A stretch of 64,000 nt of DNA from an uncultured bacterium (GCA_963851445.1 CAWKPH010000001.1:553363-617362), one strand, 5' to 3'; numbered from the stretch's first letter, positions 38,042 to 50,552 are shown. The notes: generated by a model not told the origin, from the letters alone. Numbers and translations are program-made.

Positions 38042-38129
38042 TTAACCAATTATAGTGACAAGTAAGGGAATTGTCTCTAAATCTTAAACGAGCTCCCAAC
38101 ATCACGTTACTATACCTCTGCTGTTTAAT

Positions 38130-38200: not shown

Positions 38201-38221
38201 GGCGATCACTGTCGAGTTGGC

Positions 38222-38479
38222 TCAGGACCCTTCTTCGGTGAAAGATCCGCTGCCGAACCCGCCTGCCCGGACGAGCGTGTAACACATGAGGCCGCCGAGC
38301 ATGAGAATAATTCCTATAAGCATGATGCCGACGGGAACCCATTCAGACGGCGCCTTCATTTTAGGAAGGAACAGCACCAGGATGCCGATGACGTCCAAGA
38401 AAAGACCGATGCCGCCCGCCACGCCGTACGGAACAGAAGCCTTGAAGCGCTTAAGCTCAACAACTTCGGGATCAACCAT
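38222..38479 (-). CDS. Small membrane protein, 85 aa (cassette gene)
   Basis: Two TM helices. On the minus strand a TTGACA-N18-TATATA promoter lies between repeat A1 and the ATG. Confidence 0.5.
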   Translation of the reverse strand: MVDPEVVELKRFKASVPYGVAGGIGLFLDVIGILVLFLPKMKAPSEWVPVGIMLIGIILMLGGLMCYTLVRAGGFGSGSFTEEGS

Positions 38480-38512
38480 GATTAAATCTCCAGCTAAGGA
38501 TGGCAAATTCTT

Positions 38513-38546
38513 TGTTATATAATCATAATAATGAGTAATTGTCAAG
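38513..38546 (-). promoter_or_regulatory. Sigma70-like promoter (TTGACA N18 TATATA) immediately downstream of repeat A1
   Basis: Read on the minus strand: GCGGAGCCCAAATTAAAC TTGACA attactcattattatgat TATATAA. It precedes the 38222..38479 gene. Confidence 0.5.
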
Positions 38547-38556
38547 TTTAATTTGG

Positions 38557-38631
38557 GCTCCGCATGATAGAGGACGTTAGAACGTGTTTTGTATAAAAAA
38601 TCGCCGAGCCCCTTTCGGAACACGGCGACAC
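38557..38631 (+). repeat. Cassette-array repeat A1 (GCTCCGCATGATAGAGGACGTTAGAACGTGTTTTGTATAAAAAA + hairpin)
   Basis: Full-length family A copy. The following hairpin TCGCCG...CGGCGA plus T-run on the minus strand acts as the terminator of 38632..39132. Confidence 0.8.
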
Positions 38632-39132
38632 TTATTTCAATAGATCGATATGTTCAACTTTTATGTCGTAGAAGATTTTAAGTAACCCTCTGAAACACAA
38701 AATCATCAACTCCAACCAATCCGAACGCATTATGTAGAAATGCCAGCGTATTGTTAATCTCAACGTCTTATCATCGGTATCACGAGTGACTATACCGAGG
38801 AGATTGCGTTCGAGAGGAGGAAAATGAGTCGTAATACACACTTCCTTTTGTGTACTTGAGTAGGTGCTTTCATTCCGTGCTTCGCGTAAAGCAGCCATAG
38901 CTCGCAGTACCGCCGGATTTTCCTGATCCATGCACTGGAGCACTGTTAAACCCTGTTCTACGTTTCTCCGACATTTCTGCTGGATTCCTTCGAGTATGGC
39001 GTCATGCAAACGAGGCTTGAAGAGTGCCCTAAACGGAATGGCAAAATAGCACCAAATATAAAGAACGATGCCTCCTAACACTGACGTAACAAGAAGCAAT
39101 AGTGGCAACCCGTATTCCTGAATCGGATGCAT
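38632..39132 (-). CDS. Hypothetical protein with N-terminal TM helix (cassette gene)
   Basis: 166-aa ORF. The minus-strand promoter GCGGAGC TGACAA ... TATATT sits right after repeat A2. Confidence 0.5.
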   Translation of the reverse strand: MHPIQEYGLPLLLLVTSVLGGIVLYIWCYFAIPFRALFKPRLHDAILEGIQQKCRRNVEQGLTVLQCMDQENPAVLRAMAALREARNESTYSSTQKEVCITTHFPPLERNLLGIVTRDTDDKTLRLTIRWHFYIMRSDWLELMILCFRGLLKIFYDIKVEHIDLLK

Positions 39133-39188
39133 TCTGCACCTCTAAGGTTCAAATTCAAACTAAATATAACACAGTATTCAGAATTGTC

Positions 39189-39232
39189 AGCTCCGCCTCG
39201 TGTATGAGGTTAGAACCTGTTTGGTATAAAAT
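39189..39232 (+). repeat. Cassette-array repeat A2 (GCTCCGCCTCGTGTATGAGGTTAGAACCTGTTTGGTATAAAAT)
   Basis: Variant with a CCTC..GAGG mini-hairpin. It ends 6 nt before the ATG of the plus-strand gene. Confidence 0.8.
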
Positions 39233-39238
39233 ACACCA

Positions 39239-39697
39239 ATGACTCCTCCAAAGGTTACCCCTCTCAAACTCGAAACCTACCTGGCTGTCATTAAGAACAG
39301 TGTTGGTACCCGCATGTTCCGCACCTACTACGCCCTCGTCGACGGGAAGCGGAAAGACATCATGCGTCAGGGTGAACTCTCCTGTGCTTTCTTTGTTTCT
39401 TTCATTCTTTCTGGATTCTCTTTAATTGAAGGCATGCACGGAACCGTCGAAGGCACGGTGAAAGATCTCAAAGCCTCTGGTTGGAGACATACAAAAACTA
39501 TTCGAATTGGATGTGTGATTGTATGGGAACCTATAAAAGGAGATAGAGGGGAAGTACATAGGCATATCGGCTTCTATGTGGGAAATGGGAAAGCCATCAG
39601 CAACGACTACAAGAAGGGAATGCCACGTCTCCATCCCTACAAGACTCGGAAGATTACAGGACTCTATTGGAACTCTAAACTAAATAGCTCCGCATGA
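39239..39697 (+). CDS. NlpC/P60-like (papain-fold) hydrolase domain protein (cassette gene, inverted orientation)
   Basis: Candidate Cys in ELSCAFFV and the HIGFYVGNGKAISN His motif resemble C40 peptidases. The last codons SSA and the TGA stop are supplied by repeat A3 (AGCTCCGCATGA). Confidence 0.45.
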   Translation: MTPPKVTPLKLETYLAVIKNSVGTRMFRTYYALVDGKRKDIMRQGELSCAFFVSFILSGFSLIEGMHGTVEGTVKDLKASGWRHTKTIRIGCVIVWEPIKGDRGEVHRHIGFYVGNGKAISNDYKKGMPRLHPYKTRKITGLYWNSKLNSSA

Positions 39698-39714
39698 TAG
39701 AGGACGTTAGAACC
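39687..39714 (+). repeat. Cassette-array repeat A3 (truncated: GCTCCGCATGATAGAGGACGTTAGAACC)
   Basis: The left half of the family A box only. Confidence 0.7.
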
Positions 39715-39757
39715 TACGTCTCATGATTTTCTCACGAGAATAAGGTATACTCTGCAT

Positions 39758-39931
39758 ATGTTTATGTTTTCCAAGAAATCACAGAAAAAGAACCTCCAGG
39801 AAGTTACCAAGAAGCAGCTCAAGAAAACCATGCCTGTGATTGAATCACTTCGCGACTACGATGCCGGAAAAAAGGACATTTCAACCCGTACCGCCCAACA
39901 GCGTCTGCCAAACATACGAGTTGCTCCGTAG
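39758..39931 (+). CDS. Small ORF (57 aa) upstream of and overlapping doc; candidate antitoxin, not Phd/YefM-like
   Basis: ATG-initiated and lysine-rich. It ends with TAG 11 nt inside the probable TTG start of doc. It is absent from the ORF track because it is under 60 aa. Confidence 0.3.
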   Translation: MFMFSKKSQKKNLQEVTKKQLKKTMPVIESLRDYDAGKKDISTRTAQQRLPNIRVAP

Positions 39932-40277
39932 TCAGGGGCTTGTATCGTTTGCACTCACCACTCAAGCGAAAGATAAGGTGGAAGCAATTGTTGCGAACAT
40001 AACCAACACTTACTATGGGCGCGAAATCTACGTAACGGCCGAGGAGAAGTCCGTTGCTTATTTGTATTTCCTCATAAAAGACCATCCTTTTACAGATGGC
40101 AACAAGCGTACTGCCTCACTCGTTTTTAGTATCCTTTGCGAATTAAATGAACTGACTCCACACTTTGGAAACGAAAATCCAACTCTCGATGAGCTTGCTG
40201 TATTCATCGAAAAGATTCAAGAGGAGGATCACCAATCGGTGATTCGACAGATTGCCGTCTTGATATTTGAGACATAG
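39840..40277 (+). CDS. doc: Doc (death-on-curing)/Fic-family toxin
   Basis: HPFTDGNKRTA matches the Doc-type HxFx(D/N)GNKR motif. Alternative starts are ATG 39861 or TTG 39921. Confidence 0.7.
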   Translation: MNHFATTMPEKRTFQPVPPNSVCQTYELLRSQGLVSFALTTQAKDKVEAIVANITNTYYGREIYVTAEEKSVAYLYFLIKDHPFTDGNKRTASLVFSILCELNELTPHFGNENPTLDELAVFIEKIQEEDHQSVIRQIAVLIFET

Positions 40278-40289
40278 GTTATTCGTTTT

Positions 40290-40372
40290 GCACTATAGAG
40301 GACGTTAGAACTTGTGTATATAAAAAGAAAACCACCTTTCTTAAGGGCAGTTTGTCTGGCTAGGTGATGGAA
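40290..40372 (+). repeat. Cassette-array repeat A4 (GCACTATAGAGGACGTTAGAACTTGTGTATATAAAAAGAAAACC + hairpin)
   Basis: Family A copy lacking the GCTCCGC head. The hairpin CCACC..GGTGATGG precedes the stop of 40379..40891. Confidence 0.7.
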
Positions 40373-40378
40373 ACAAAC

Positions 40379-40891
40379 TCACAGGATAAATACCTCATAC
40401 TCGCAACCATCAACCAGTAAGCCTTCACCACGATTGGGGAAAAAACTCCGATGAGGAACATTTTGTGTCCAATCGACTCTTCCACCCTGCATTTCGATGA
40501 GACGCCAAGCAAGCAGTACGGGAACCTCGTCATGACCAACGACGACAACGTTTTCCTCCATCTGCGCGGTTTCCAGAAGAGTGTCTAGGGCTCGTGTCGC
40601 GTACCCCTGTCCAGATTCTTCCTCCTTAGAGCCTACATAGGGAATAGAAACTCCCACGTGCTTGAGATTGCCGAAGGCGAACAGTATTGGGTGCAGTGTC
40701 GGTCGCTGACCAGAAAGAAGAAGGCGAGCTGTAGTCACACAGGCTTCATCTTCAGAGGTTAGAGCAAAAGTTGCTATGAAGTCTCGTTCGAGCAGCCATG
40801 TACGGGCTCGCTTGATGTCGTTAATCCCATCTACACTTAGGTCACGTCCCTGGCCAAGCTCGCCATGGCGCTGAAAGAAAAAGCGAGCCAT
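40379..40891 (-). CDS. Histidine phosphatase superfamily (SixA/PGAM-like) protein (cassette gene)
   Basis: N-terminal RHGE motif (QRHGELGQG) and a second His in VVVVGHDEV. Confidence 0.55.
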   Translation of the reverse strand: MARFFFQRHGELGQGRDLSVDGINDIKRARTWLLERDFIATFALTSEDEACVTTARLLLSGQRPTLHPILFAFGNLKHVGVSIPYVGSKEEESGQGYATRALDTLLETAQMEENVVVVGHDEVPVLLAWRLIEMQGGRVDWTQNVPHRSFFPNRGEGLLVDGCEYEVFIL

Positions 40892-40984
40892 ATGTCAATC
40901 CTCAATGAAGTTTCTTGGTACGTTATAGCACAATTTGTAGATTTTCAGCTCCCAAACATTACCTTAATATACCTTCCTCATTGG

Positions 40985-41042
40985 AAGGGGAGTGAGTGTA
41001 AAAAAGAAAACAGTCCACCGAAGCAGACTGCTTCGGTGGACT
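40985..41042 (+). repeat. Cassette-array repeat B2 (GGGGAGTGAGTGTAAAAAAGAAAAC + perfect 14-bp hairpin)
   Basis: Short variant. The hairpin GTCCACCGAAGCAG/CTGCTTCGGTGGAC plus T-run on the minus strand is a strong terminator for 41064..41336. Confidence 0.7.
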
Positions 41043-41063
41043 GGATTGACCTCTCAGGCGAGG

Positions 41064-41336
41064 TTAAGGGGTTATGCGGGCGAGGCATCCCAGATCAGCT
41101 TCGACCCGGGCATACTCACCAGGGGAGATCTCGAACTCGACGTCGAGGCAGTCTTCCACGAACTTCGCAATGCCATGCACAAGGCCGATGGTTCCTCCGC
41201 GAATCGCGGTGGTTGCTGGTCTGCCATCGGTCAGAAGTGGCGGTGGCGTACGACGGCCGCAAAAGGTTTGGGTGGCCTGCACGAGGTCGGCATAACAGTA
41301 GCCGCCGATTAGCTTCTTTTCCCGTTTCTGATTCAT
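41064..41336 (-). CDS. Hypothetical 90-aa protein, GC-rich (~60% GC) (cassette gene)
   Basis: The promoter GCGGAGCACAG TTGACA N16 TGATATAGAT and the 5'UTR are nearly identical to those of the 44663..45085 cassette. Confidence 0.45.
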   Translation of the reverse strand: MNQKREKKLIGGYCYADLVQATQTFCGRRTPPPLLTDGRPATTAIRGGTIGLVHGIAKFVEDCLDVEFEISPGEYARVEADLGCLARITP

Positions 41337-41431
41337 CGAATGCTCTCCGCGCTAGAATGAAAGGGTACAAACGGATTTAGATCCGAAGGTTCTCTTTATC
41401 TATATCATATAAAGTATATTCTGTCAACTGT

Positions 41432-41515
41432 GCTCCGCACAGTGCACCAGGTTAGAACCTGTTTGGTATAAAAAGAAAAGGACAGCTTCACACAAATGTG
41501 CGAAACCGTCCTGGT
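41432..41515 (+). repeat. Cassette-array repeat A5 (GCTCCGCACAGTGCACCAGGTTAGAACCTGTTTGGTATAAAAAGAAAAGG)
   Basis: Family A copy with an alternative middle segment. Confidence 0.75.
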
Positions 41516-41527
41516 GTCTCCCAATGC

Positions 41528-41941
41528 TTACTTACGGTTGGACGCCTTGGATGCCGCAGCCGAGGCCAGAGGAAGTGGTGCGGGGATTTCTCCATTGCCG
41601 TAGATTAGCCCGTCGCCTTGGAGGATGTTCGCGATGTCGCGGGTTCCGGAGAGTTTGACGACTGCGTATGAGCCATTCACGGGAACGTCGGTGACGATGC
41701 CGTCGTACTGCTTGCTGTTGATCTGGAGTTTCACCTCTTTCGAGCAGAAGTCCGTGCCGATGCAGTGACAGTAGTCTACGCCTTCACGGCAGGAGTTGCT
41801 GAACTGCCTCGACTGCGCGTACGGGTCTACCTCGCCGCCCGGGAACGGAAAGAGGTTGACCTTGAACGACACCTGGACCGTGCAGTCCTTGCTGGGGTCA
41901 CAGTCGACGGCGTCGATAAACACAGCATGTTTATAGTCCAC
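41528..41941 (-). CDS. Lipoprotein-like protein (cassette gene); the N-terminal signal peptide is apparently separated by a 1-nt frameshift (41942..42050)
   Basis: In the track frame, upstream of the called start, the sequence reads SPLALGACSDNSSS (lipobox LALGAC). MKMILVTCAAISA is encoded in another frame 30 codons upstream. Confidence 0.45.
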   Translation of the reverse strand: MDYKHAVFIDAVDCDPSKDCTVQVSFKVNLFPFPGGEVDPYAQSRQFSNSCREGVDYCHCIGTDFCSKEVKLQINSKQYDGIVTDVPVNGSYAVVKLSGTRDIANILQGDGLIYGNGEIPAPLPLASAAASKASNRK

Positions 41942-42172
41942 TTCGGCATGACCTAGGCTAGTCGAGGCCTCTGCCTTGCTCGACGAATTGTCGCTGCAAG
42001 CGCCAAGTGCGAGCGGAGATTGCCGCGCAAGTAACTAGGATCATTTTCATCTCAGTCTCTTTCCGTGGGGGGTTTCAGATCGATAGGAACAAATTCACTT
42101 CGGAGTCTAGTATGACATGTTAAGATTTCATGTCAAGTTCACGTTATGTTTCAATACCTTGGAATCATCCTG

Positions 42173-42247
42173 GCTCCGCATGATAGAGAACCTTAGAACA
42201 TAGCTGGTATAAAAAGCCACCCAGTCCGCTTTCGCGAAAGGGTGGCA
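42173..42247 (+). repeat. Cassette-array repeat A6 (GCTCCGCATGATAGAGAACCTTAGAACATAGCTGGTATAAAAAG + hairpin)
   Basis: Family A copy. Hairpin GCCACCC..CTTTCGCGAAAG..GGTGGC. Confidence 0.75.
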
Positions 42248-42272
42248 GTTGATCAGTTTTGAGATGCTAAAC

Positions 42273-43322
42273 CTACTTATGGCCAAGCGCTCTCCAATTG
42301 TTCTTGGTCTTGGTGGCATAGATACGTCCCGTTGGTCGTGTAGACCCGAGATACGGGAGCCGTGCCTTGTCCCAAAGCCATTTCCTCCCCGCATCCCGCG
42401 CGAACGCCGGTTTGTTATGGGCCGTGGCAATGTATTCCACAAGATCCACATCGCTTGTACGCCAGACCCGCTCGAGAGTCTTCAGTTCGCGTTCGTTGAG
42501 ACTCGCAATCAGATCGGCCAGGTTAGAAACCGCAAAAAGATATGCAGCCTTAGCGTGGTCGTCTGAACGAAGCCGCATGACACTCCCCGGTATCCTAAGA
42601 TTTGAAGGAAGAGAATGGTTGGCTTTTGAGGCGCCGTTCTGGTGTCCGTGGGCGTCGTAGATGGCGAATGGAGTGAACTGGAACGGTCCAAAGCTAGTGA
42701 TCCCGTCATGTATCGCCGGGATACTTTCCACGAAACGACGACCCCCGTGCCGAAGCAGGAAGTCAAAGTAATCGCGATTGAAGGCACCGTTGTAGCGACC
42801 GGGCAAGAGCTCAGTCATGGCGTATGCCACAAGTGAACGTCCGCCAATATGACTGGAGATCTGCTTGAGCAGCTTGAGCTTGCGCTCAGTTAGACGGTAG
42901 TGCTGGCCGAGTTGTTGCCAATCGAGGTGCGTCTGTAGAAGATGCGCATCCTCGCTAGCATCTGTCTCATACTGGCGAATCGGCATCCTTCCCGGATCTT
43001 TCGTCCGGTATTCAGAAATTAACTGCCGAGCCGTTGCTATAACCGTGCGGCTGTCGCCGTGATTGTTTTCTTTTGCCGTCCACAGCGCGACAAGCCGCTT
43101 GTCCCAATCGACACAAAGTCGAGAGGGGATCACATCATTGCGGCTGCTCAGTCCGATGTAATCGGCGTATAAGTCTGAACCGCGATGTCCGGCAAGGCGA
43201 CCGGTACTGTAGCAACCAGCATGTGAGCTGGTCGTGCGATACGTGGTCACAGCCATTGTCCCGAGAGGGAAGATGGCCATGCCCAGAGCCGCAAGTGCGG
43301 CATATGGTTTCAATGATCTCAT
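42273..43322 (-). CDS. Secreted hypothetical protein, 349 aa (cassette gene)
   Basis: Signal peptide MRSLKPYAALAALGMAIFPLGTMA. The promoter TTGACA N17 ATTATA abuts repeat A7. Confidence 0.5.
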   Translation of the reverse strand: MRSLKPYAALAALGMAIFPLGTMAVTTYRTTSSHAGCYSTGRLAGHRGSDLYADYIGLSSRNDVIPSRLCVDWDKRLVALWTAKENNHGDSRTVIATARQLISEYRTKDPGRMPIRQYETDASEDAHLLQTHLDWQQLGQHYRLTERKLKLLKQISSHIGGRSLVAYAMTELLPGRYNGAFNRDYFDFLLRHGGRRFVESIPAIHDGITSFGPFQFTPFAIYDAHGHQNGASKANHSLPSNLRIPGSVMRLRSDDHAKAAYLFAVSNLADLIASLNERELKTLERVWRTSDVDLVEYIATAHNKPAFARDAGRKWLWDKARLPYLGSTRPTGRIYATKTKNNWRALGHK

Positions 43323-43429
43323 AATTCACCCTCTCCCAAGGGACAGATTGTATTAGGTGGGACAGGCAAAGCCTGCATGAATTAGCCATGTATATAATAC
43401 ATATGATATACATTTTGTCAATTTTAGAG

Positions 43430-43492
43430 GCTCCGCCTCGTGTATGAGGTTAGAACCTATGTATAAAAGAAAACCCGCTGAAGCAGGTTTAG
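43430..43492 (+). repeat. Cassette-array repeat A7 (GCTCCGCCTCGTGTATGAGGTTAGAACCTATGTATAAAAGAAAACC + hairpin)
   Basis: Family A copy with the CCTC..GAGG mini-hairpin. Confidence 0.8.
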
Positions 43493-43514
43493 AATAGTTG
43501 ATGAGTTTCACGCC

Positions 43515-43910
43515 TCAATTCATTGAATGAATTCTGGCATCGTCGTCTGGCACAACTTCTTCGATGCACACGATTGGTCCCTCCTCAGTCATGATTGGCT
43601 GAACTGAGATACCAATCACATCTGGATCGAATATCAAGTTTTCAGAACCGGAGCGAAGCAGAAACTCAACCATGCGAGCTTCTCCGTTAGTCTCATCAAG
43701 GTCGGCATGAAAGACGGTCCCTCGGATCGCACCGAACATGCCATTACCCTTGTTGGTCAAGAGACCATCGCAGCACGGATGAGTGAAATACAGCTTACTG
43801 TCTTTGCCTCCCGATTGAAGTGCCTTGACTGAAGCGCTATGCAGAACCATCCGTTCCATAGCGCTAGTGTTCCTACCTCTCCAATCAAGGAAGATAAGCC
43901 CATTTAGCAT
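43515..43910 (-). CDS. Hypothetical protein, 131 aa (cassette gene)
   Basis: The promoter TTTGACA N17 TATAAA follows the degenerate repeat A8. Confidence 0.45.
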   Translation of the reverse strand: MLNGLIFLDWRGRNTSAMERMVLHSASVKALQSGGKDSKLYFTHPCCDGLLTNKGNGMFGAIRGTVFHADLDETNGEARMVEFLLRSGSENLIFDPDVIGISVQPIMTEEGPIVCIEEVVPDDDARIHSMN

Positions 43911-43990
43911 TTCGAATCCTCTCTACGAACGTATGGTTTACCCAAAGAACAGAGGCTTTATATCTTTATGGCATAGAGTTGTCAAACTCT

Positions 43991-44060
43991 GCTCTGCCTC
44001 TGCTATGAGGTTAGTGGGTGGTATGAAAAGAAAAAGCCCCCATACCGAAGCAGGGAGGTG
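43991..44060 (+). repeat. Cassette-array repeat A8, degenerate (GCTCTGCCTCTGCTATGAGGTTAGTGGGTGGTATGAAAAGAAAAAGCC)
   Basis: It retains CCTCTGCTATGAGGTTAG and TATGAAAAGAAAA. Confidence 0.6.
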
Positions 44061-44088
44061 ATGGTTATCTCAACCTTATCTGTGAAGC

Positions 44089-44481
44089 TTAGGCTTCAGC
44101 TGGAGCTCGAGTGAGATGGAAATCCAGAATAGGGCCTTCGTATCCGCGGAAGAACTCCTCGAGATCGAAAGGCGGCGGCGGACCGGCGTTGGACTCGTGG
44201 TTGACATAGTAGCGGCCAAGCTTGAAGAGCAGGTCAGCAGTGGTAACGTGCGGGAACATTCGCTGGAAGATATTGGCAAAGTTGAATACGCCAATCATCC
44301 AGACATCCATGCTGAGTTTTCCTTCGCGGCTATGCCGCGTAAAGTGCTCCCACACATGCTCGCGGAAATGTTCAATGAGCGTTTCGGGCGTATGATGTTC
44401 AGCAATGCGCTGACACCATTCTTCGTAACCGGCACTAATCTCTTCATTAGTCATTTGGCACCTCCTGGCTTTGTGTGGCAT
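44089..44481 (-). CDS. Hypothetical protein, ~120-130 aa (cassette gene)
   Basis: Histidine-rich and acidic. Confidence 0.4.
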   Translation of the reverse strand: MPHKARRCQMTNEEISAGYEEWCQRIAEHHTPETLIEHFREHVWEHFTRHSREGKLSMDVWMIGVFNFANIFQRMFPHVTTADLLFKLGRYYVNHESNAGPPPPFDLEEFFRGYEGPILDFHLTRAPAEA

Positions 44482-44590
44482 GTACCTTGGTCATTCCAAG
44501 GTATTGAACCATGCGGAATCTGAGCAGAATCTAGCACAGTTGCACAAGGGTTCCAACATCACCCGAAAGAATATTCGGTTGGCAGTTGTA

Positions 44591-44660
44591 GAAGTGAGTA
44601 TAAAAAGAAAACCACCCCTCCGTCGAAACGAAGAAGTGATCTTCGAATCGCCGAGGTGGC
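44591..44660 (+). repeat. Cassette-array repeat B3 (GAAGTGAGTATAAAAAGAAAACCACCCCTCCG + hairpin)
   Basis: Near-identical to B1 over ~40 nt. The spurious plus-strand ORFs 38135..38485 and 44471..44959 both translate this segment as SIKRKPPLRRN. Confidence 0.65.
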
Positions 44661-44662
44661 GG

Positions 44663-45085
44663 TTAGCGGAAGGGATCGCCAGAAACAATCTCGCCCCGCG
44701 TCTCCCCGCTGATCTTGCCGTCGATGTAGTCCATCTCGGATTGCTCCGCGCGTTCGTTAGGGTCCTCCATAAGATAAATATGGATCTCCCGCCGCACCTG
44801 GTTTTTCAGCCAGAAGAAACTCGGAACGAAGCTCACGCCGGTGATGACCAATGTGAACGCATTGAGTACCCTCCAGCTGAAGTGACCGATATGACTCTCG
44901 AGCCACGGCGGTCCAGGCATGAGGGTGGAAGCGATGACCACCCCGAGCAATATCGCTGAGAGAGCGGTCACCCTCTCCCTGTCGCTGAACTTTAGATAGA
45001 TGAGGGCAAAGCCGTAGCCACCCAAAACACCAGCGACGAGGTACGAGTAGCCCCAGGGCCACAAGTCTTGCCAGTGGGCAAACAT
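44663..45085 (-). CDS. Membrane protein, 140 aa (cassette gene)
   Basis: 3-4 TM helices. The promoter GCGGAGCACAG TTGACA N16 TGATATAGAT abuts repeat A9. Confidence 0.5.
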   Translation of the reverse strand: MFAHWQDLWPWGYSYLVAGVLGGYGFALIYLKFSDRERVTALSAILLGVVIASTLMPGPPWLESHIGHFSWRVLNAFTLVITGVSFVPSFFWLKNQVRREIHIYLMEDPNERAEQSEMDYIDGKISGETRGEIVSGDPFR

Positions 45086-45189
45086 GGTTCATGCGTCCTT
45101 TTGGCGCACTATATAGTTGGTGGAAAGAACGGGCAATGAGCCCAAAGGTTCTCTTTATCTATATCATTTAAATTTATTTTGTCAACTGT

Positions 45190-45265
45190 GCTCCGCATGA
45201 TAGAGGACGTTAGAACGTGTTTGGTATGAAAAATCGCCGACGCATCGCTTATGAGCGATAGCAAG
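45190..45265 (+). repeat. Cassette-array repeat A9 (GCTCCGCATGATAGAGGACGTTAGAACGTGTTTGGTATGAAAAA + hairpin GCATCGCT..AGCGATAGC)
   Basis: Full-length family A copy. Confidence 0.8.
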
Positions 45266-45333
45266 ATGTACTTGACAGAGTAAGAATAATATATTATTGT
45301 ATTAACGAATTTTGTTCCTGATGGAGAAAACAG

Positions 45334-45561
45334 ATGTATGCTTTCCGCATTGTTGGAGATTTCGCCGGTCTTATCGGAGCCCTGTGCGGCATGGCCGGGG
45401 TGATACTTTTGCTTTATGGTTGGCACTGTCACAATCGTGCATACAAATCAGCAACTACTGTGGCTGAGTGGCGCCGCGTTGCCCTGGTTTGGTCATGGTC
45501 TGCGTGGCTTCTTGTCCTCTCAGTGGGACTCACAGGGGTGCCAAACCTGCTCATCAAGTAG
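45334..45561 (+). CDS. Small membrane protein, 75 aa (cassette gene, inverted orientation)
   Basis: Two TM helices. It has its own TTGACA-containing promoter region at ~45272. Confidence 0.4.
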   Translation: MYAFRIVGDFAGLIGALCGMAGVILLLYGWHCHNRAYKSATTVAEWRRVALVWSWSAWLLVLSVGLTGVPNLLIK

Positions 45562-45638
45562 AGAACTGGCGCATGCGGAGAAAATCCGTGTGCGCCAATT
45601 ATTTTTATTTCTTTACGACGTTCACGATTTTCACCCTA

Positions 45639-45716
45639 GCCTCGCATGATAGAGGACGTTAGAACATGTTTGGTATGAAAAAGCCCGCATTGCTGCGAGC
45701 TCAGAATGAGAAGGGT
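45639..45716 (+). repeat. Cassette-array repeat A10 (GCCTCGCATGATAGAGGACGTTAGAACATGTTTGGTATGAAAAAG)
   Basis: Family A copy. Confidence 0.8.
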
Positions 45717-46265
45717 TTATGCGTGAGCCAAGACCTTGTCTTCAGAGAACCGATACTCCCCATCAAAGGGTGCAGTCGCCTCTGCAAACTGACTCAAGAC
45801 TTCCGAGACGAGTGGCCAGAACTTGCCATAGCCGATAAATGAGAATTCCTGTTCCAGCAGTCCGAACTCTGCCGTCGCCGAAAGTCTCCACTCATGTTGG
45901 CTGTGTGAGTTTTGTGAGTCATAGATCTTCCCGACGCAAACTCTGAGAAGCCGTTTTGGCCGAGAGAAGTTGGACATGCTCAGATCTTCTTCGCACCTCG
46001 GGATGCCAGCAAGCACTTGCAGGTGAGCGCTGTATTCCTGAGAGTATATCCTCTCCAAAAAAACAAGAGAGGGAAGACCATAGTGGCCGATAAGTTCCGT
46101 CAGTTCTGTGAGAGGACGTACACGATACGGTGGTTGCTTGGGAGATATGATACCCGCGCATGGGAAGTTGATCTCTTCCACACCACCATGGTTCTCGCTC
46201 ACTCTGTCGAAGATCAGACGAGGGGCTGCAAGCAGACCTTCGACGTCGATACGCTCTTGGGACAT
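45717..46265 (-). CDS. Hypothetical protein, 182 aa (cassette gene)
   Basis: Read on the minus strand, promoter CTGACA N16 TATACT and SD AGGAGG lie between repeat A11 and the ATG. Confidence 0.5.
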   Translation of the reverse strand: MSQERIDVEGLLAAPRLIFDRVSENHGGVEEINFPCAGIISPKQPPYRVRPLTELTELIGHYGLPSLVFLERIYSQEYSAHLQVLAGIPRCEEDLSMSNFSRPKRLLRVCVGKIYDSQNSHSQHEWRLSATAEFGLLEQEFSFIGYGKFWPLVSEVLSQFAEATAPFDGEYRFSEDKVLAHA

Positions 46266-46325
46266 GATTGCCTCCTGTGTAATTCCCGATTTCAGTATAC
46301 GATCTGCCCTCGATTTGTCAGCCCC

Positions 46326-46418
46326 GTCACGTATGACGTAAGAACTTGTAGGGTATGAAAAGAAAAAGACCGCCTCCCCGAGACACCGGAAAGACAGTCT
46401 CTGCAGAGAAGCGGTCGT
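46326..46418 (+). repeat. Cassette-array repeat A11, divergent (CGTCACGTATGACGTAAGAACTTGTAGGGTATGAAAAGAAAAAG + long hairpin GACCGC...GCGGTC)
   Basis: The mini-hairpin is replaced by CGTCA..TGACG and TTAGAAC becomes TAAGAAC. The terminator hairpin lies just before the stop of 46429..46770. Confidence 0.6.
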
Positions 46419-46428
46419 GAAAGTGGTC

Positions 46429-46770
46429 TCAAGCCACTTCGGTCACAACACGGTCGATGAGGTTTGTCGGTTCCGACAGCTCCATCTCGAAGAGCTTCTT
46501 CAGGGCGGAGATGCCCATGAGTGTGGCGAGAGCAACCATCTGGTCGTGCTCTTCACGTTTGAAGAGCTTGGTCACCGTCCAGAGTTCACGAACTCGACCA
46601 GGCATGCGTTCGAACTTCAGGCCGACCACCGGTTGGTGCCTGTCACCGACCGATACAAGCTCGATCTTGCGACCGAACTGAGCCAACAAGAAAAGGCTGC
46701 GATCCATGATGTTATCCTTTTGTGAAAAGCCAGACGTCTGGCAACAAATTCGGTACGTATATGAAAACAT
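46429..46770 (-). CDS. Hypothetical protein (probable start MDRSLF... at ~46707) (cassette gene)
   Basis: I chose this over the overlapping plus ORF 46417..46725 because it has a terminator, a repeat and an upstream TTGACA. Confidence 0.4.
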   Translation of the reverse strand: MFSYTYRICCQTSGFSQKDNIMDRSLFLLAQFGRKIELVSVGDRHQPVVGLKFERMPGRVRELWTVTKLFKREEHDQMVALATLMGISALKKLFEMELSEPTNLIDRVVTEVA

Positions 46771-46790
46771 GCACAGGAGCGTTTGTCAAG

Positions 46791-46838
46791 GCTCCGCGCA
46801 GTGCATGAGGTTAGAACGTGTATGTAAAAGAAAAAACC
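46791..46838 (+). repeat. Cassette-array repeat A12 (GCTCCGCGCAGTGCATGAGGTTAGAACGTGTATGTAAAAGAAAAAACC)
   Basis: Family A copy. Confidence 0.75.
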
Positions 46839-46852
46839 TACTCGCGTCTACT

Positions 46853-47320
46853 CTACACGCTTTCGGTTTTCTTGACGGCAAATCTCCAGAAGGGAGCCCA
46901 GCCGGCATCGATGATGCGCACTCGTATTCCATGTCCAGCTCCTGCATGAATACAGGGTACGAATCGGTATCCTCGAGGATCTTCCCATGTATCCTTCGGA
47001 GCTGTGATCGGAGGAGCATGTTCAAGTTGCGGATTGCTTGCCCGAAGCTCAAGTAGCTCTGCGGCATTTACTGCTTCATAACCCTCATTCAGAAGCAACA
47101 TAGCCGTGTCTTCCTTATGGCTGATCCACCAATCGAAGGAAACGAGATCGATTGAAACCGACTGAAGCCCATAACACAGTTGTGGGAAGTGCTCGTCAGT
47201 GAGGCGCGCATCGATGTAGTCTGGCGGATTCTCTTTTAGTGTAATCCGTCTCAGAATGCGTCTGATAGTCTGAGACCCCAGATAGGGAACCTGCACTTCA
47301 AAGTGCTCTACAATTTTCAT
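46853..47320 (-). CDS. Hypothetical protein, 155 aa (cassette gene)
   Basis: Extended -10 TGATATAAC and SD AAGAGG lie upstream on the minus strand. Confidence 0.45.
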   Translation of the reverse strand: MKIVEHFEVQVPYLGSQTIRRILRRITLKENPPDYIDARLTDEHFPQLCYGLQSVSIDLVSFDWWISHKEDTAMLLLNEGYEAVNAAELLELRASNPQLEHAPPITAPKDTWEDPRGYRFVPCIHAGAGHGIRVRIIDAGWAPFWRFAVKKTESV

Positions 47321-47377
47321 TCGACTACCTCTTGTTGATCTAAGTGAGTTATATCACTTTTTTATTTTTTTCAGATC

Positions 47378-47442
47378 CACCTCTGTCATGAGGTTAGAAC
47401 CTATGTATAAAAGAAAACCGCCCAATTGCTTGGACGGCTTGG
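47378..47442 (+). repeat. Cassette-array repeat A13 (CCTCTGTCATGAGGTTAGAACCTATGTATAAAAGAAAACC + hairpin CCGCCCAA..TTGGACGG)
   Basis: Family A copy lacking the GCTCCGC head. Confidence 0.7.
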
Positions 47443-47463
47443 TTTCTTCGTTAAGCTGATCGA

Positions 47464-48018
47464 TTAGAAAATCTCATGAATGAAGCCGAGCTCTTTGGCT
47501 TCTTCGGCACTCATATCCCGATCTTCCGCAAGCAGCTTACGCATCCTGCGAATCGGCATGCCGGTTTTGTCAGAATACATGCGAACGATTGTTTCTTCTT
47601 GCTTAACTGCTTCATCGATGAGTTCCTGCATTCGAGCTTTGCTTTTGACTGAGCTCGTTGGAAGGTTCATCCATGAGTGCCGCCCTTCGTGAACAAGTAT
47701 TGTTGAACCTTCTTCACAAAGGCGACGATCACACATGAGAAGTATCGTTACCGCTGCAGATCTCGCAGCGCCATAGACACGAACGGTCTTGTGGCCCATG
47801 TAGTCTTGCAGAAGCCGAGCGATGAAAAGGCCAGCTCTTTCGTACCCGCCATGACTTGATAGACGTATTTGTATAGCGGGCGAGTCGCGCGCTGTGAGGA
47901 CGGTCATGGCCGCAAGCACATACTCGGCCATTTGTTGGTCGACCTCCCCTTGAAGGAAGAGAGTATTCTTATCCAGCAGCTCTCTTTCGAGACCTGTCAT
48001 GCAATTGTCTAGCGACAT
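47464..48018 (-). CDS. ClpP-like (S14 family) serine protease (cassette gene)
   Basis: GAARSAAVTILLMCD (Ser region) and VHEGRH (His region) line up with the ClpP catalytic motifs. Promoter GCGGAGC ATAAA TTGACG N16 TATTAT. Confidence 0.55.
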   Translation of the reverse strand: MSLDNCMTGLERELLDKNTLFLQGEVDQQMAEYVLAAMTVLTARDSPAIQIRLSSHGGYERAGLFIARLLQDYMGHKTVRVYGAARSAAVTILLMCDRRLCEEGSTILVHEGRHSWMNLPTSSVKSKARMQELIDEAVKQEETIVRMYSDKTGMPIRRMRKLLAEDRDMSAEEAKELGFIHEIF

Positions 48019-48090
48019 TTAACTAACATCTCCGATGCAGACGTAATTTCCTGAATGATAATAACACGAACCAATGATTCGTCAATTTAT

Positions 48091-48150
48091 GCTCCGCCTC
48101 ATAGAGGATGTTAGAACGCGGGTGGTATGAAAAACCGCCCTTTCTTGAGG
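48091..48150 (+). repeat. Cassette-array repeat A14 (GCTCCGCCTCATAGAGGATGTTAGAACGCGGGTGGTATGAAAAACC + hairpin CCGCCCT..AGGGACGG)
   Basis: Family A copy. Confidence 0.8.
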
Positions 48151-48173
48151 GACGGTCTTGAGTGTTATGCGGA

Positions 48174-48530
48174 TCAGAGTCCGTTTCGAGCGTAAAAGTC
48201 CTGAGAAGCTTTGGCGTATGCGGTCGGATCGCCATTGAGCTTTACGACACGGCTGATCATTCCCAACGACCCGCTCCCTTTGAGGCTTCTCAGAACATCA
48301 AGACTACCGTTTGCAAGGTCGATGCGTTCTGGAAAGCCATTCTTGTAGTAGATGTCGCCGCTGCAAGATACGGGATTCGACTCACAGCCCTCCACCCATG
48401 CAGAGACTTCTGCGGGGGGTGGGGAATTGGAGGACGATACGCTGTGATGCTTGCCAAGAACGGCGTGAAAATAGAGGATGGCAAACACGACGATTAGTCC
48501 AAGGAAAAGGTACCGACCACGCATATCCAA
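48174..48530 (-). CDS. Secreted hypothetical protein (likely start ATG at 48524) (cassette gene)
   Basis: Signal peptide MRGRYLFLGLIVVFAILYFHA. Promoter TTGACA N17 ATAATA and SD AGGAGG. Confidence 0.5.
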   Translation of the reverse strand: MDMRGRYLFLGLIVVFAILYFHAVLGKHHSVSSSNSPPPAEVSAWVEGCESNPVSCSGDIYYKNGFPERIDLANGSLDVLRSLKGSGSLGMISRVVKLNGDPTAYAKASQDFYARNGL

Positions 48531-48608
48531 AACCCCTCCTTAGGGCAGTAGCATGAACATTCTGACTGCATCTATTATGCAAAGGTCACAATGCATGTCA
48601 AGTATAAG

Positions 48609-48692
48609 TGCTCTGCTATGAGGTTAGAACGCGGGTATGAAAAAAGCCGCCCGGAGCACAACGAAGTAAACTCCGGGGGCTTCAGGCGGTCA
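48609..48692 (+). repeat. Cassette-array repeat A15 (GTGCTCTGCTATGAGGTTAGAACGCGGGTATGAAAAAAG + hairpin GCCGCCCGGAG..CTCCGGGGGC)
   Basis: Family A copy. The hairpin plus T-run on the minus strand terminates 48690..49529. Confidence 0.75.
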
Positions 48693-49529
48693 GTTGTAAA
48701 TGCGATCCAGATAGAGCACGGTGCCGTAACATTTTTCGCTCCAGAGGATGTGAACGTAGTCTCTCCAGTTCGCAAATGGCAGAATATAGCCGCCGAACTT
48801 CCTGGGCAGGTTATTCGGTAGATATCGCTGCATCTCGTGCCTTGCGCGGTCAGTAAGTGGAAAAAGAATCTTCTGGTCGCCGTACGAGAGAACGGCCATC
48901 GAATCTCCGGTTCTCTGCTGCTGCCGAATCTTCTCCGGAATGACCAGGAAGTCGAACCAGTGCTTTTGGAAGCGCGAGTTCAGGGGTGGTTCTTGCCCAA
49001 ACTCCTCATCGACAGGGCTTGAGTAGCTCGCAATTGCCGGTCGTCCAGGGATGGGCGTCGCGGTCTTGGTGTCGAAGTTGAAGTGCGCAAGGATCCGCAT
49101 GACGTGAGCGAGTGCACCAGCCGCATCCTCCTTGCGGAAGTTTCGAACCTCACTCGTCGGCCAGTTTTGTCCAGGGCACGGAATCTGGCATTGCATGATG
49201 CTGAAGTCGCCTTCGAAAGCGTAACGGACATAGGCGATGCAGTCGTCATTCTTGACGAAACCAACTCCCTCGAGGTGAGCCATGTCCTCGTCTGCTACTG
49301 CACCGGCGAGCAGATTGATCTGCCAGGAATCCTGTGGCGTCGCACCAACATTGCAGACACCGATATGTCCGGGATGGACGTCGGTGATGCGCATCTTGTC
49401 GCTCAGTCCGCAGAACTCGATGCATTCTTGAAGCAGCTTGGCGAACTGCTCGGCGCGTGGCAGAGAGGCTGTCTTGTCGATGTCTCTTTGACGCTCATAG
49501 GCTTCTCGTTCGAGCGATGTGTCGCTCAT
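48690..49529 (-). CDS. Hypothetical protein, 279 aa (cassette gene)
   Basis: Promoter GCGGAGCACAAT TTGACA N15-17 TATATAAA upstream on the minus strand. Confidence 0.5.
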   Translation of the reverse strand: MSDTSLEREAYERQRDIDKTASLPRAEQFAKLLQECIEFCGLSDKMRITDVHPGHIGVCNVGATPQDSWQINLLAGAVADEDMAHLEGVGFVKNDDCIAYVRYAFEGDFSIMQCQIPCPGQNWPTSEVRNFRKEDAAGALAHVMRILAHFNFDTKTATPIPGRPAIASYSSPVDEEFGQEPPLNSRFQKHWFDFLVIPEKIRQQQRTGDSMAVLSYGDQKILFPLTDRARHEMQRYLPNNLPRKFGGYILPFANWRDYVHILWSEKCYGTVLYLDRIYN

Positions 49530-49630
49530 GGTTTGAACCTTTCTTGCTGCTAGAATGAATAGAACGAACGGACTTCAGGAGCCCGTACTGTGGTGTTTTA
49601 TATAATGGAGTTCTGAACTTGTCAAATTGT

Positions 49631-49716
49631 GCTCCGCCTCTGCTATGAGGTTAGAACGTGGGTATGAAAAAACCGCAAGAGAGGGGATTGGACCCTCGTC
49701 CTGCGGCGTCAAAGGT
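49631..49716 (+). repeat. Cassette-array repeat A16 (GCTCCGCCTCTGCTATGAGGTTAGAACGTGGGTATGAAAAAACC + hairpin)
   Basis: Family A copy. Confidence 0.8.
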
Positions 49717-49731
49717 AGTTCTTGCTCGATC

Positions 49732-50406
49732 TCAAACGTACCCTTTGGTTCGTGCCCGTGCGTACATGCTCTCCGCATCAGCCTTTAGCTCCTCGAGGAG
49801 GTGACTGTTCACGGTGAGGGAACTAGGGGCGTCTAACGAGTCAGCTACCTGTCCAACCAGAGCGCCTTCCTGATTTATCATTGGGCTGCCCGACAATCCC
49901 GGATGGATTCCCGGAATCTCGAACAGTCGCACATCCCGAGCACGATCGCGGCTACCAATCCAAATTGCCGATTTGATGATGATGTCCGTGGCACAGCCTG
50001 TAAGGTGGGTATCAGCCAGCGTGCCTTTCCATGCCACCTCGAACCGGTCCTCGGACGACCCCACCACATATTCGGGAATTGCTATAGGCTCGCCCTCACT
50101 TAGAGAGATTGCCCATGGCAACGGCTCGGCGACAAGTGGCCTTTGCAGAATCGCGATGGCACAGTCAAGGTTCTTGGAGAAAGCGACGTTCGGTACAGCA
50201 CAGCGCATGTCGGTTGATACGTGCCGAGCAATTACTGTTTCCGGCACGGCACCAGTAAAATTATGTGCACAGGTAAGGGTGGCGCGGCGGTTGGGGAAGC
50301 AGGCAAAACCAGAACCCCATCCAACCGTCCCATCTTGCTTCCCGATGGTAAAAATGACCATCGCCTGCCGAAGCTGTTGAAGAACTTGTTGGCGGAATAG
50401 GCTCAC
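49732..50406 (-). CDS. Trypsin-like (S1 family) serine protease (cassette gene)
   Basis: His LTCAHNF, Asp DCAIAIL and Ser GLSGSPM motifs. Confidence 0.6.
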   Translation of the reverse strand: MSLFRQQVLQQLRQAMVIFTIGKQDGTVGWGSGFACFPNRRATLTCAHNFTGAVPETVIARHVSTDMRCAVPNVAFSKNLDCAIAILQRPLVAEPLPWAISLSEGEPIAIPEYVVGSSEDRFEVAWKGTLADTHLTGCATDIIIKSAIWIGSRDRARDVRLFEIPGIHPGLSGSPMINQEGALVGQVADSLDAPSSLTVNSHLLEELKADAESMYARARTKGYV

Positions 50407-50465
50407 CTTGCGACCCTTTCATGTCTGATTCCGAAGGGACTATAGCATGGAAATCGAAATTGTCT

Positions 50466-50540
50466 GCTCCGCATGATAGAGGACTTTAGAACGTGTTTGG
50501 TATAAAAAAGGCCACCGAAGGGGTTCCGGTGGGTGAGACT
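50466..50540 (+). repeat. Cassette-array repeat A17 (GCTCCGCATGATAGAGGACTTTAGAACGTGTTTGGTATAAAAAAGG + hairpin CCACCGAAGG..CCGGTGG)
   Basis: Full-length family A copy. Confidence 0.8.
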
Positions 50541-50552
50541 TAGCCTCGAGGA

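Follow-up and report, generated by a model that had tools for sequence, protein, structure and literature searches.

A window of 64,000 nucleotides from the genome of an uncultured bacterium (GCA_963851445.1 CAWKPH010000001.1:553363-617362), a small Patescibacteria (CPR) chromosome, contains a 16-20 kb row of mostly single-gene minus-strand modules that are separated by a short repeat, and the question that arises is what this repeat is. The first-pass annotation of the window placed the repeat between a terminator and a sigma70-like promoter in each module and proposed that it is either a recombination boundary that carries a promoter with each cassette or a common activator or silencer site of a single regulon, with the XRE and GHKL/DUF4325 genes at the right end as candidate regulators. 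The observation itself is confirmed by the present analysis. The interpretation is partly supported, namely with respect to the recombination boundary but not to the regulon; the resemblance of the repeat to the 3' end of tRNA-Asn and its wide spread across the CPR had been missed.

The core of the repeat is a 27-nt box, GTTCTAAC-N12-GCGGAGC. The pattern GTTCTAACN12GCGGAGC, with up to 2 mismatches allowed, gives 14 matches, all on the minus strand between 38557 and 53276, against 0.11 expected by chance and a maximum of 2 in 100 shuffles. Inspection of the sequence adds about ten degenerate or truncated copies, bringing the total to about 24 junction repeats, all in one orientation, which separate about 24 small modules in an array that spans 38092-54290 on the minus strand and might extend to about 57.9 kb with other junction types. 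Most copies follow a GC-rich hairpin plus T-tract and precede a TTGACA-type promoter. The flanking elements were measured on 18 boxes: 11 of these are followed by a TTGACA match of at least 5/6 within -6 to +12 nt of the box end (background 0.115, binomial p = 7e-7), 11 are preceded by a 9-nt stretch with at least 7 T (background 0.05), and the upstream hairpins are more stable than background (mean -15.1 against -10.2 kcal/mol, Mann-Whitney p = 6e-4). A consensus scan also finds more terminator-like sites (35 against 17.1) and more promoter-like sites (26 against 18.2) than shuffled sequences. Promoter and terminator function is inferred here from consensus matches only, in the absence of transcript data. 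The order of stop codon, hairpin, T-tract/ATAC, box, -35/-10, Shine-Dalgarno sequence and ATG holds at roughly 14 of about 18 well-formed junctions.

The individual junctions, all on the minus strand, vary in the details of this arrangement. The box at 38557-38583 (GTTCTAACGTCCTCTATCATGCGGAGC) is preceded by a T-tract/ATAC at about 38584-38600 and a hairpin at about 38601-38625 and is followed after 11 nt by TTGACA, whereas at 39190-39216 (CTCATACACGAG subtype) the -35 element overlaps the box end (39190-39163, CTGACA N16 TATATT). The box at 41432-41458 (CTGGTGCACTGT subtype) has a terminator hairpin at 41512-41479 and TTGACA 4 nt after the box, and shares its promoter and 5'UTR with the junction at 45190-45216, where TTGACA also follows after 4 nt. 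The box at 42173-42199 contains 1 mismatch and has a promoter at 42136-42109 (TTGACA N16 CATACT), and the box at 43430-43456 lies between a terminator at 43490-43471 and a promoter at 43421-43394 (TTGACA N16 TATTAT). A degenerate repeat at 43991-44025 (CATACCACCCAC-TAAC-CTCATAGCAGAG-GCAGAGC) is followed by TTTGACA. The variant box at 46319-46345 (GTTCTTAC...GACGGGGC) has a terminator at 46402-46365 and a promoter at 46321-46294 (CTGACA N16 TATACT) followed by AGGAGG, and TTGACA is found 1 nt after the box at 46791-46817. The box at 47374-47400 (GGTGGATC, 2 mismatches) has a terminator at 47440-47415 but is followed only by an extended -10-like TGATATAAC. The box at 48091-48117 is followed by a promoter at 48085-48058 (TTGACG N16 TATTAT), the box at 48604-48630 is truncated before GCGGAGC and precedes a promoter at 48601-48574 (TTGACA N16 CATAAT) and AGGAGG, and TTGACA is located 5 nt after the box at 49631-49657. 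The box at 50466-50492 (1 mismatch) has a terminator at 50532-50512, and the degenerate repeat at 50900-50934, with a terminator at 50957-50934, ends in GGGGAGC and is followed by TTGACA. Further degenerate boxes lie at 51789-51815 (GTTCTAAT..., without GCGGAGC), upstream of the cassette at 50964-51701, and at 53250-53276 (GTTCTGAC...GCGGAGC), upstream of the XRE gene. In addition, a variant junction of the GGGAGC type at 38092-38152 consists of a hairpin, TTTTCTTTTTATACTCACTTCC, about 20 nt and GGTATAGTAACGTGATGTTGGGAGC, and the same type occurs at 40948-41010, 44549-44611 and 54237-54257.

Three cassettes hold plus-strand genes, and at their junctions the box keeps its orientation but no promoter follows it. 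These are a gene at 39239-39697 (152 aa, no Pfam match), with its 3' end next to the box at 39687-39713, which also lacks a preceding T-tract; a cassette at 39758-40277, with a Doc/Fic toxin-like gene at 39840-40277 and an upstream small ORF at 39758-39931, where the 3' end of the Doc/Fic gene lies next to the box at 40285-40311 with a degenerate 3' part (GTGCAAAAC); and a gene at 45334-45561 for a membrane-like protein of 75 aa, with its own promoter at 45272-45300 and terminator at 45567-45597, next to the box at 45639-45665 (2 mismatches). Thus, the orientation of the box is independent of that of the gene. The cargo is accessory: most of the cassette genes in the window have no Pfam family, and Doc/Fic and proteases are among the rest. 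In particular, the minus-strand cassettes include genes for a ClpP-like protease (47464-48018), a trypsin-like peptidase (49732-50406), a 349 aa protein without a Pfam family that is a singleton at 90% identity (42273-43322) and a 279 aa protein, also without a Pfam family, with one homologue at 36% identity among 5.8 billion proteins (48690-49529). A GHKL ATPase + DUF4325 gene on the plus strand and an XRE/C-protein-like HTH gene on the minus strand (51887-53164) lie inside the island; the XRE protein matches restriction-modification 'control protein' models, and both genes are read as island cargo that was not shown to regulate the array.

The box is not confined to this genome. It recurs in about 70 loci from many Patescibacteria lineages and a few other phyla, always downstream of a gene on the same strand, whether or not a promoter follows. 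A stricter pattern hits 63 loci among species-representative genomes, nearly all of them Patescibacteria MAGs, with an estimated 9 or so chance hits. Among these related loci, designated here by L numbers, arrays with the architecture of the window are present in L004, L026, L045, L056, L057 and L068-L072, and Fic is the most frequent family near boxes (11 of 144 ORFs). In 16 independent loci, a tRNA-Asn(GTT) gene, in some cases containing a group I intron, lies upstream of the boxes on the same strand and heads the array. The box itself resembles the 3' end of tRNA-Asn, with a T-loop-like GGTTCNAAY and the identical terminal GCGGAGC: the tRNA reads GGTTCGAAT-N7-GCGGAGC, the box reads (G)GTTCTAAC-N12-GCGGAGC, and intermediates such as GTTCTGAATCC...TCGGAGC exist. 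What follows the tRNA end equals what follows a box in the same genome; in L013 this is the same hairpin, and in L057 a TTGACA promoter starts directly at the tRNA end, as it does after the boxes of the window.

Comparison of the loci indicates where cassette-specific sequence begins, namely immediately 3' of GGAGC. L044 and L063 are 99.7% identical up to 3 nt past a rare box variant and unrelated thereafter, and L013 and L034 become similar right after the GGAGCC of two different boxes. A cassette shared by L023 and L044 sits in a different order relative to other shared genes. These cases come from other lineages, and only the L044/L063 and L013/L034 boundaries place the junction at the GGAGC end, whereas the right end of the L023/L044 cassette could lie anywhere in the box. 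Within the window, the promoter and 5'UTR common to the 41432 and 45190 junctions lie behind boxes of different subtype. Finally, L026 and L057 have matching flanks but carry different cassettes.

Several alternatives to an attachment site were considered. An integron cassette array without a nearby integrase (a CALIN), with the box as the R''/L'' half of an attC site recombined by an IntI-type integrase acting on folded single strands, is suggested by some related lineages, where the box (or the tRNA end), a hairpin and an inverted core GTTAGAAC form an imperfect palindrome of about 95 nt that folds far better than shuffles (L020:7166-7266, -26.7 kcal/mol, z = -8.4). GTTAGAA is close to the integron R' consensus GTTRRRY, the left edge of the L023/L044 cassette lies at GGTTAGAAC, orphan cassettes, a toxin-antitoxin cassette and uniform orientation recall chromosomal integrons, and CALINs are common (Cury et al. 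2016, PMC4889954). However, the junctions in the window have only one core and form only the terminator hairpin and a tiny stem, most boxes elsewhere also lack the inverted core, no IntI-like sequence was found in the window or in any locus, almost every cassette has its own promoter, which integron cassettes rarely do, and two boundary cases end right after the box rather than at an R' site, so that this possibility appears doubtful. It is likewise possible, although doubtful, that no dedicated recombinase is involved and the conserved 27-50 nt repeats serve as portable homology, such that cassettes are swapped, lost or gained by RecA-dependent recombination, for example after DNA uptake. No recombinase was found near any array, the repeat, conserved across lineages, is long enough to give short homology on both sides of every cassette, natural competence is used for genetics in cultivated Saccharibacteria, and breakpoints at the edges of a shared repeat are also predicted by this model. 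Nevertheless, it does not explain the imitation of the tRNA-Asn end, the start of the arrays at that tRNA on one strand in 16 of 16 loci, the strict single orientation, or the near invariance of 27 nt across phylum-level lineages.

The two remaining readings seem unlikely. An operator or activator site that places all cassette promoters in one regulon would be compatible with the location of 11 of 18 boxes within 12 nt upstream of a -35-like hexamer, with the short dyad symmetry of the core (ACGTT-CT-AACGT or AGGTT-CT-AACCT) and with the HTH regulators encoded nearby. Yet the distance from the box to the -35 element varies from 0 to 11 nt, the box is retained next to inverted cassettes where no promoter follows, in most other genomes it lies upstream of a terminator rather than a promoter, in the 3' flank of a gene, and the tRNA-Asn end can take its place in front of the first promoter. 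The box might also be one end of a MITE- or REP-like miniature element that spread through intergenic regions carrying terminator and promoter signals, given that in some lineages the sites look like elements of about 100 bp, with inverted ends of about 20 bp (GTATACCAGGTTCTAACGTCC), an internal bidirectional terminator and an outward TGGTATACT -10-like motif. In the window, however, only one such 'end' is present at every junction, always in the same orientation, the boxes are confined to the island, with none in the other ~44 kb, no transposase was found, and transposition does not predict the tRNA-Asn anchoring.

Among known systems, tandem genomic islands built by tRNA-targeting integrative elements, for example the tycheposon islands of Prochlorococcus (Hackl et al., bioRxiv 10.1101/2020.12.28.424599), likewise involve insertion at the 3' part of a tRNA gene, repeated insertion that pushes older elements outward and leaves partial-tRNA repeats between modules, accessory cargo in a streamlined genome with few classical mobile elements, and common degenerate remnants without an integrase. 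The modules described here differ in being mostly single genes of 0.4-1.2 kb rather than multi-gene elements, no integrase was seen in the 16 tRNA-proximal loci, the repeat is a diverged pseudo-tRNA end conserved across phylum-level lineages, and the array of the window is not next to a tRNA. Sedentary chromosomal integrons and CALIN arrays (Cury et al. 2016, PMC4889954) share the long one-directional array of small, mostly orphan cassettes, each ending in a conserved recombination-site-like repeat that is homogeneous within an array, the toxin-antitoxin-type cassette in inverted orientation, and, at some related sites, an imperfect palindrome with a GTTAGAA core. In contrast, intI, attI and Pc are missing here, the sites of the window are not hairpin-forming attC sites, the cassettes bring their own promoter and terminator, the arrays are anchored at tRNA-Asn, and the host genome is smaller than 1 Mb, a size class in which complete integrons were not found. 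The rAID-1 recombinase-associated immunity-gene arrays of Bacteroidales (Ross et al. 2019, Nature) consist of small genes with individual promoters separated by conserved intergenic repeats and have been described as integron-like, but they sit next to a tyrosine recombinase gene and carry immunity genes, whereas here there is no adjacent recombinase and both the repeat and the cargo are different. The pdif modules of Acinetobacter plasmids are discrete gene modules bounded by short sites for a recombinase encoded elsewhere (XerC/XerD); however, pdif sites are 28-bp Xer sites in alternating orientation, whereas the box shows no resemblance to dif that we could see and all its copies are direct.

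Taken together, we consider it somewhat more likely than not (probability of about 0.55) that the box, together with its T-tract/ATAC extension, is an attachment-site (att) repeat that marks the end of each cassette in a tandem array of small integrative modules that carry no integrase. The analysis shows the repeat and its fixed order, its wide distribution, its association with tRNA-Asn, the position where cassette-specific sequence starts, and the different cassettes at a syntenic locus; actual recombination, the crossover position, the enzyme, and the activity of the promoters and terminators are inferred. Some observations do not fit this proposal easily. No tyrosine, serine or HUH recombinase was detected in the window or in about 80 related loci by tblastn, by Pfam searches of the window ORFs, or by a Pfam search of 144 neighbouring ORFs, for which only the 25 commonest families were listed. 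The 64-kb window contains no tRNA at all. The box is not a faithful partial tRNA, because the spacing between its two tRNA-like blocks is 12 nt rather than 7 and its GCGGAGC does not co-vary with tRNA-Asn variants such as CCCGAGC or TCGGAGC. The proteins of the window are singletons at 90% identity, and no excised circle, empty site or strain polymorphism could be examined. The strand opposite the box carries a short ORF with a coding signature that this model does not explain. In the inferred mechanism, circular or incoming modules, each a self-contained expression unit with a sigma-70-type promoter, Shine-Dalgarno sequence, one gene (rarely two), intrinsic terminator and box, would recombine at the tRNA-Asn end or at an existing box, with the junction forming at or next to GGAGC, most likely through a site-specific recombinase encoded elsewhere. 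Repeated insertion would then build a row of modules, each followed by a pseudo-tRNA end and all in one orientation; the repeat in this CPR chromosome most likely marks where cassettes were joined, as in an integron but built differently.

On the minus strand between about 38.1 and 54.3 kb, small genes are separated by one repeat, the consensus of which, read on the minus strand, consists of a variable GC-rich hairpin, TTTTYTTTTATAC(CAAAC)AS, then GTTCTAAC, 12 nt and GCGGAGC. The 27-nt box GTTCTAAC-N12-GCGGAGC matches 14 times with at most 2 mismatches, with all matches on the minus strand, against a chance expectation of 0.11. About ten further junctions carry truncated or diverged copies, among which one recurrent variant ends in GGGAGC. 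Measurement of the flanks of 18 boxes showed that 11 are followed within 12 nt by a TTGACA match of at least 5/6 (background 0.115, p = 7e-7), 11 are preceded by a T-rich 9-mer (background 0.05), and the upstream 50 nt fold more stably than background (p = 6e-4). A consensus scan also shows an excess of terminator-like and promoter-like sites in the region; all promoter and terminator calls are consensus predictions. The first-pass annotation described a terminator, then the repeat, then a promoter at each minus-strand junction, and this order is indeed real. It is not universal, however: three cassettes hold plus-strand genes with their own signals (39239-39697, the Doc/Fic module at 39758-40277, and 45334-45561), and at their junctions the box keeps its orientation but is not followed by a promoter.

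The window is chromosomal, with DnaG, RpoD, an AddA-type helicase-nuclease and HisRS encoded at 0-9 kb, and transport, glycosyl-transfer and polysaccharide genes flanking the island. The source contig comprises 687,765 nt, and the nearest named relatives of the HisRS are from Pacebacteria, Parcubacteria and Minisyncoccota at 61-68% identity, so that the organism is a member of the Patescibacteria (CPR). Most cassette genes have no Pfam family; those that do encode a ClpP-like protease, a trypsin-like peptidase and a Doc/Fic toxin. Close relatives of the array were sought without success: the exact 27-mer has no match in the metagenome collection, all eight window proteins looked up are either absent or singletons at 90% identity, and the 279-aa cassette protein encoded at 48690-49529 has a single homologue at 36% identity among 5.8 billion sequences, in a 1.5-kb contig with no box. 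No strain-level comparison of this array was made.

A GHKL ATPase with a DUF4325 (STAS-like) domain is encoded next to an XRE protein that matches restriction-modification 'control protein' models (51887-53164) and, although the ATPase has no PADLOC match, the two might form a conflict or defence module carried in the island. A different repeat of about 80 nt (47 nt at 98% identity; 55311-55357 and 55729-55775, plus 55355-55389 / 55799-55833), which contains a GGGAGAA...TTCTCCC hairpin, follows two small minus-strand genes at the right end of the island and may be a second junction type. The conserved motif AAGGTATTGAAACAT(T/A)ACG, found at 42132-42167, 54762-54797 and about 44490-44510 and also in a distant CPR locus (L044, about 60-90), appears to be a ribosome-binding site plus the TTG start of small proteins beginning MKHY(D/E)P(F/L)T. 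Finally, within 41950-42090, a short ORF (ATGAAAATGATCC..., ending in TAG at about 41998) precedes the GTG-start ORF 41528-41941 in the same cassette, which may reflect a frameshifted or two-part lipoprotein-like gene.

The box is not local. The pattern GTTCTAACNTCMTN7GCGGAGC hits 63 stretches in one-genome-per-species contigs, where we estimated about 9 chance hits (these and other related loci are denoted here by L numbers). Nearly all are Patescibacteria MAGs, namely Saccharibacteria, Paceibacterota, Moranii-, Uhr-, Peri-, Levy-, Nomura- and Magasanikbacteria, whereas a few are labelled Ignavibacteria, Omnitrophota or WOR-1, and some TPA bins labelled Bdellovibrionales or Gammaproteobacteria have uncertain labels. 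A pattern specific for the architecture of the window found 8 more metagenome contigs, whereas a phage or plasmid origin was rejected given that there were 0 hits in 2.9 million viral contigs. In all these loci the box lies downstream of a gene on the same strand, often directly after the stop codon, in one of two arrangements. In type 2, which is that of the window, the order is hairpin, T-tract/ATAC, box and promoter; it is seen in L004, L026, L045, L056, L057 and L068-L072, with three cassettes of about 500 nt built this way in L069. In type 1 and related sites, the box is followed by a hairpin and T-tract and, in a subset, by an inverted core GTTAGAAC and a TGGTATACT motif.

In 16 independent loci, tRNA-Asn(GTT) lies upstream of the boxes on the same strand, 0.4-2.3 kb from the first box. 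In several of these loci the tRNA gene contains a group I intron (L022 889-1229, L051 6807-7046 and L061 7793-8000, and also L034 and L057 by similarity); such genes are missed by ARAGORN but are found by Rfam and sequence matching. The tRNA ends GGTTCGAAT-N7-(C/G)CGGAGC, whereas the box reads (G)GTTCTAAC-N12-GCGGAGC; in Saccharibacteria/Paceibacterota-type genomes the last 7 nt are identical, and variant boxes such as GTTCTGAATCCGTCCAGTATTCGGAGC are intermediate. What follows the tRNA end matches what follows a box in the same genome: in L013 it is the same hairpin and flank, in L046 it is hairpin, T-tract, GTTAGAAC, then TGGTATAAT, and in L057 the tRNA end is followed directly by a TTGACA promoter, as after the boxes of the window. 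The tRNA end therefore takes the place of the first box of an array.

Comparison of related loci indicates where cassettes begin and end. L044 and L063 share 325 nt at 99.7% identity, and the shared stretch includes a rare box variant and stops 3 nt after its GGGAGC. L013 and L034 share a gene at 89.5% identity, with similarity beginning right after the GGAGCC of two very different boxes. L023 and L044 share a 1.2-kb cassette at 90.6% identity, which ends 1 nt after the box and sits on opposite sides of other shared genes in the two genomes, whereas L026 and L057 have syntenic flanks but unrelated cassettes next to tRNA-Asn. Inside the window, the junctions at 41432 and 45190 share a promoter and 5'UTR behind boxes of different subtype. 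Together these observations place the box with the upstream cassette, and the junction at or just after GGAGC, a position that corresponds to the 3' terminus of the tRNA.

The best reading is tandem accretion of small integrative modules at a tRNA-like attachment site. This is the process known for tRNA-targeting elements, where repeated insertion leaves partial-tRNA repeats between modules (Hackl et al.), but here the modules are mostly single genes with a promoter and a terminator, so that the array would work like an integron whose cassettes are each expressed on their own. The repeats, their flanks and the cassette boundaries are observed in the sequences, whereas recombination itself is inferred. 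The single orientation of the boxes, kept even when the gene inside is inverted, fits a directional recombination site and does not fit a transcription signal. The interpretation in the first-pass annotation is supported in part, namely with respect to a recombination boundary but not to a common regulatory site. Of the features expected of arrays of tRNA-targeting elements, the presence of direct repeats that copy the 3' part of the target tRNA is left undecided: the box shares the T-loop-like 9-mer and the terminal GCGGAGC with tRNA-Asn, and intermediates exist, but the spacing is 12 rather than 7 nt. This difference in spacing, together with the lack of co-variation between the GCGGAGC of the box and local tRNA-Asn variants, shows that the box is a diverged and independently conserved sequence and not a fresh copy of the tRNA. 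An intact target tRNA at the head of the array, although present in the 16 related loci, is lacking in the window, where no tRNA was found within 64 kb.

The enzyme is unknown. An integrase gene in at least some elements would be expected, but tblastn with IntI1, XerD, two serine recombinases and an IS608 TnpA found nothing at E < 1e-3 in the window or in about 80 loci (the weakest IntI1 and XerD hits had E of about 1). The probe sequences were not taken from database records, and the related loci are at most 20 kb long, whole genomes not having been searched, so that a recombinase further away would have been missed. Pfam searches likewise showed no recombinase among the ORFs flanking the array or, for 144 neighboring ORFs of at least 230 aa in related loci, among the 25 commonest families. 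A large serine recombinase lies about 7.5 kb from a lone box in L066, but it was seen only once and was treated as unrelated. The commonest family among the 144 ORFs is Fic/DOC, with 11 members (loci L007, L014, L015, L018, L022, L034, L040, L046, L047, L054 and L066), making it the most frequent recognizable cargo near boxes across CPR genomes; the window carries a short Doc-like gene at 39840-40277. The possibility that Fic genes are the unit tied to the box was considered and rejected because these genes are not followed directly by a box and behave as ordinary cargo.

An integron or CALIN is suggested by the palindromic type 1 sites and the GTTAGAA core. In some lineages, the tRNA-Asn T-arm or the box is mirrored by an inverted copy beyond the terminator hairpin, giving an attC-like imperfect palindrome of about 95 nt followed by an outward TGGTATACT motif (L020 7166-7266, L054 600-700, L063 1415-1515, and after tRNA-Asn in L013, about 49-160, and L046), and the type 1 sites in L020, L054 and L063 do fold (z -3.7 to -8.6). 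True attC sites are imperfect palindromes of about 60-140 nt with R''/L''...L'/R' that fold as single strands. The sites of the window, in contrast, are half-sites that fold only into the terminator hairpin plus a stem of 4-5 bp, with two of the four window folds not differing from shuffles (z -0.3 and -0.8); the attC model of IntegronFinder was not applied. An adjacent IntI, which is not required for a CALIN, was not found in the window or in any of the loci searched, and whereas integron cassettes are usually promoterless and expressed from Pc, 11 of the 18 junctions examined have a predicted -35 match right after the box. Furthermore, two boundary cases end at the box rather than at an R'-like site.

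Homologous exchange through the repeats is a live alternative for how cassettes move today. An operator that places the cassettes in one regulon would be expected to hold a fixed position relative to the promoter and to depend on the presence of a promoter, but this is contradicted by the variable spacing (0-11 nt), by boxes without a downstream promoter at inverted cassettes, and by the usual position of the box in front of terminators in other genomes. A MITE- or REP-like element, for which terminal inverted repeats and dispersed copies in both orientations would be expected, does not fit the single orientation, the one 'end' per junction and the confinement of the boxes to 38-54 kb. A search of Rfam 15 at the gathering score gave no hit in the window and only tRNAs and group I introns in 18 related loci. 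A small structured RNA covering the 'long form' of the element was also rejected because RNAalifold gave only a weak consensus (-10.1 kcal/mol), with invariant pairs and no convincing covariation outside the terminator.

A short ORF antisense to the box is unexplained. The strand opposite the box reads (W)LR-[IV]V-[EKD]DVRT and, in many loci (long forms in L018, L019, L022, L050, L061, L020 and L044), continues for 21-28 codons to ...YIYIPDL... and a stop, with conserved second and variable third codon positions, a pattern typical of coding sequence. In the window, on the plus strand of every box, this ORF is cut to 7-10 codons (e.g., 38557-38600, ATG ATA GAG GAC GTT AGA ACG TGT TTT GTA TAA). 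The possibility that the box is the 5' end of a large recombinase gene was rejected because a profile search of 5.8 billion proteins returned only ORFs of 24-75 aa and Pfam found nothing.

More speculatively, and less likely than not, Patescibacteria and a few other uncultivated phyla may possess a lineage-wide gene-capture system that is functionally analogous to integrons but independent of them. In this view, single-gene cassettes carrying their own promoter and terminator are inserted one after another at the 3' end of tRNA-Asn through a conserved pseudo-tRNA attachment site, by a recombinase not yet recognized or by a route that needs none, and the short conserved ORF on the opposite strand of the site may be part of the machinery. 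Literature searches on integrons, cassette arrays or tRNA islands in Patescibacteria found nothing relevant, and no description of this element was found in the literature searched. The 27-nt site is easy to search for and could serve to delimit variable islands and cassettes in metagenome-assembled genomes and, if the recombination partner is found, could become an insertion site for the few CPR bacteria that can be manipulated genetically. Every cassette would be expressed independently, which differs from the position-dependent expression seen in integrons. CPR bacteria have genomes below 1 Mb and few recognized mobile elements, and complete integrons were not found in very small genomes (PMC4889954); a conserved cassette system would help explain how these bacteria gain and lose accessory genes.
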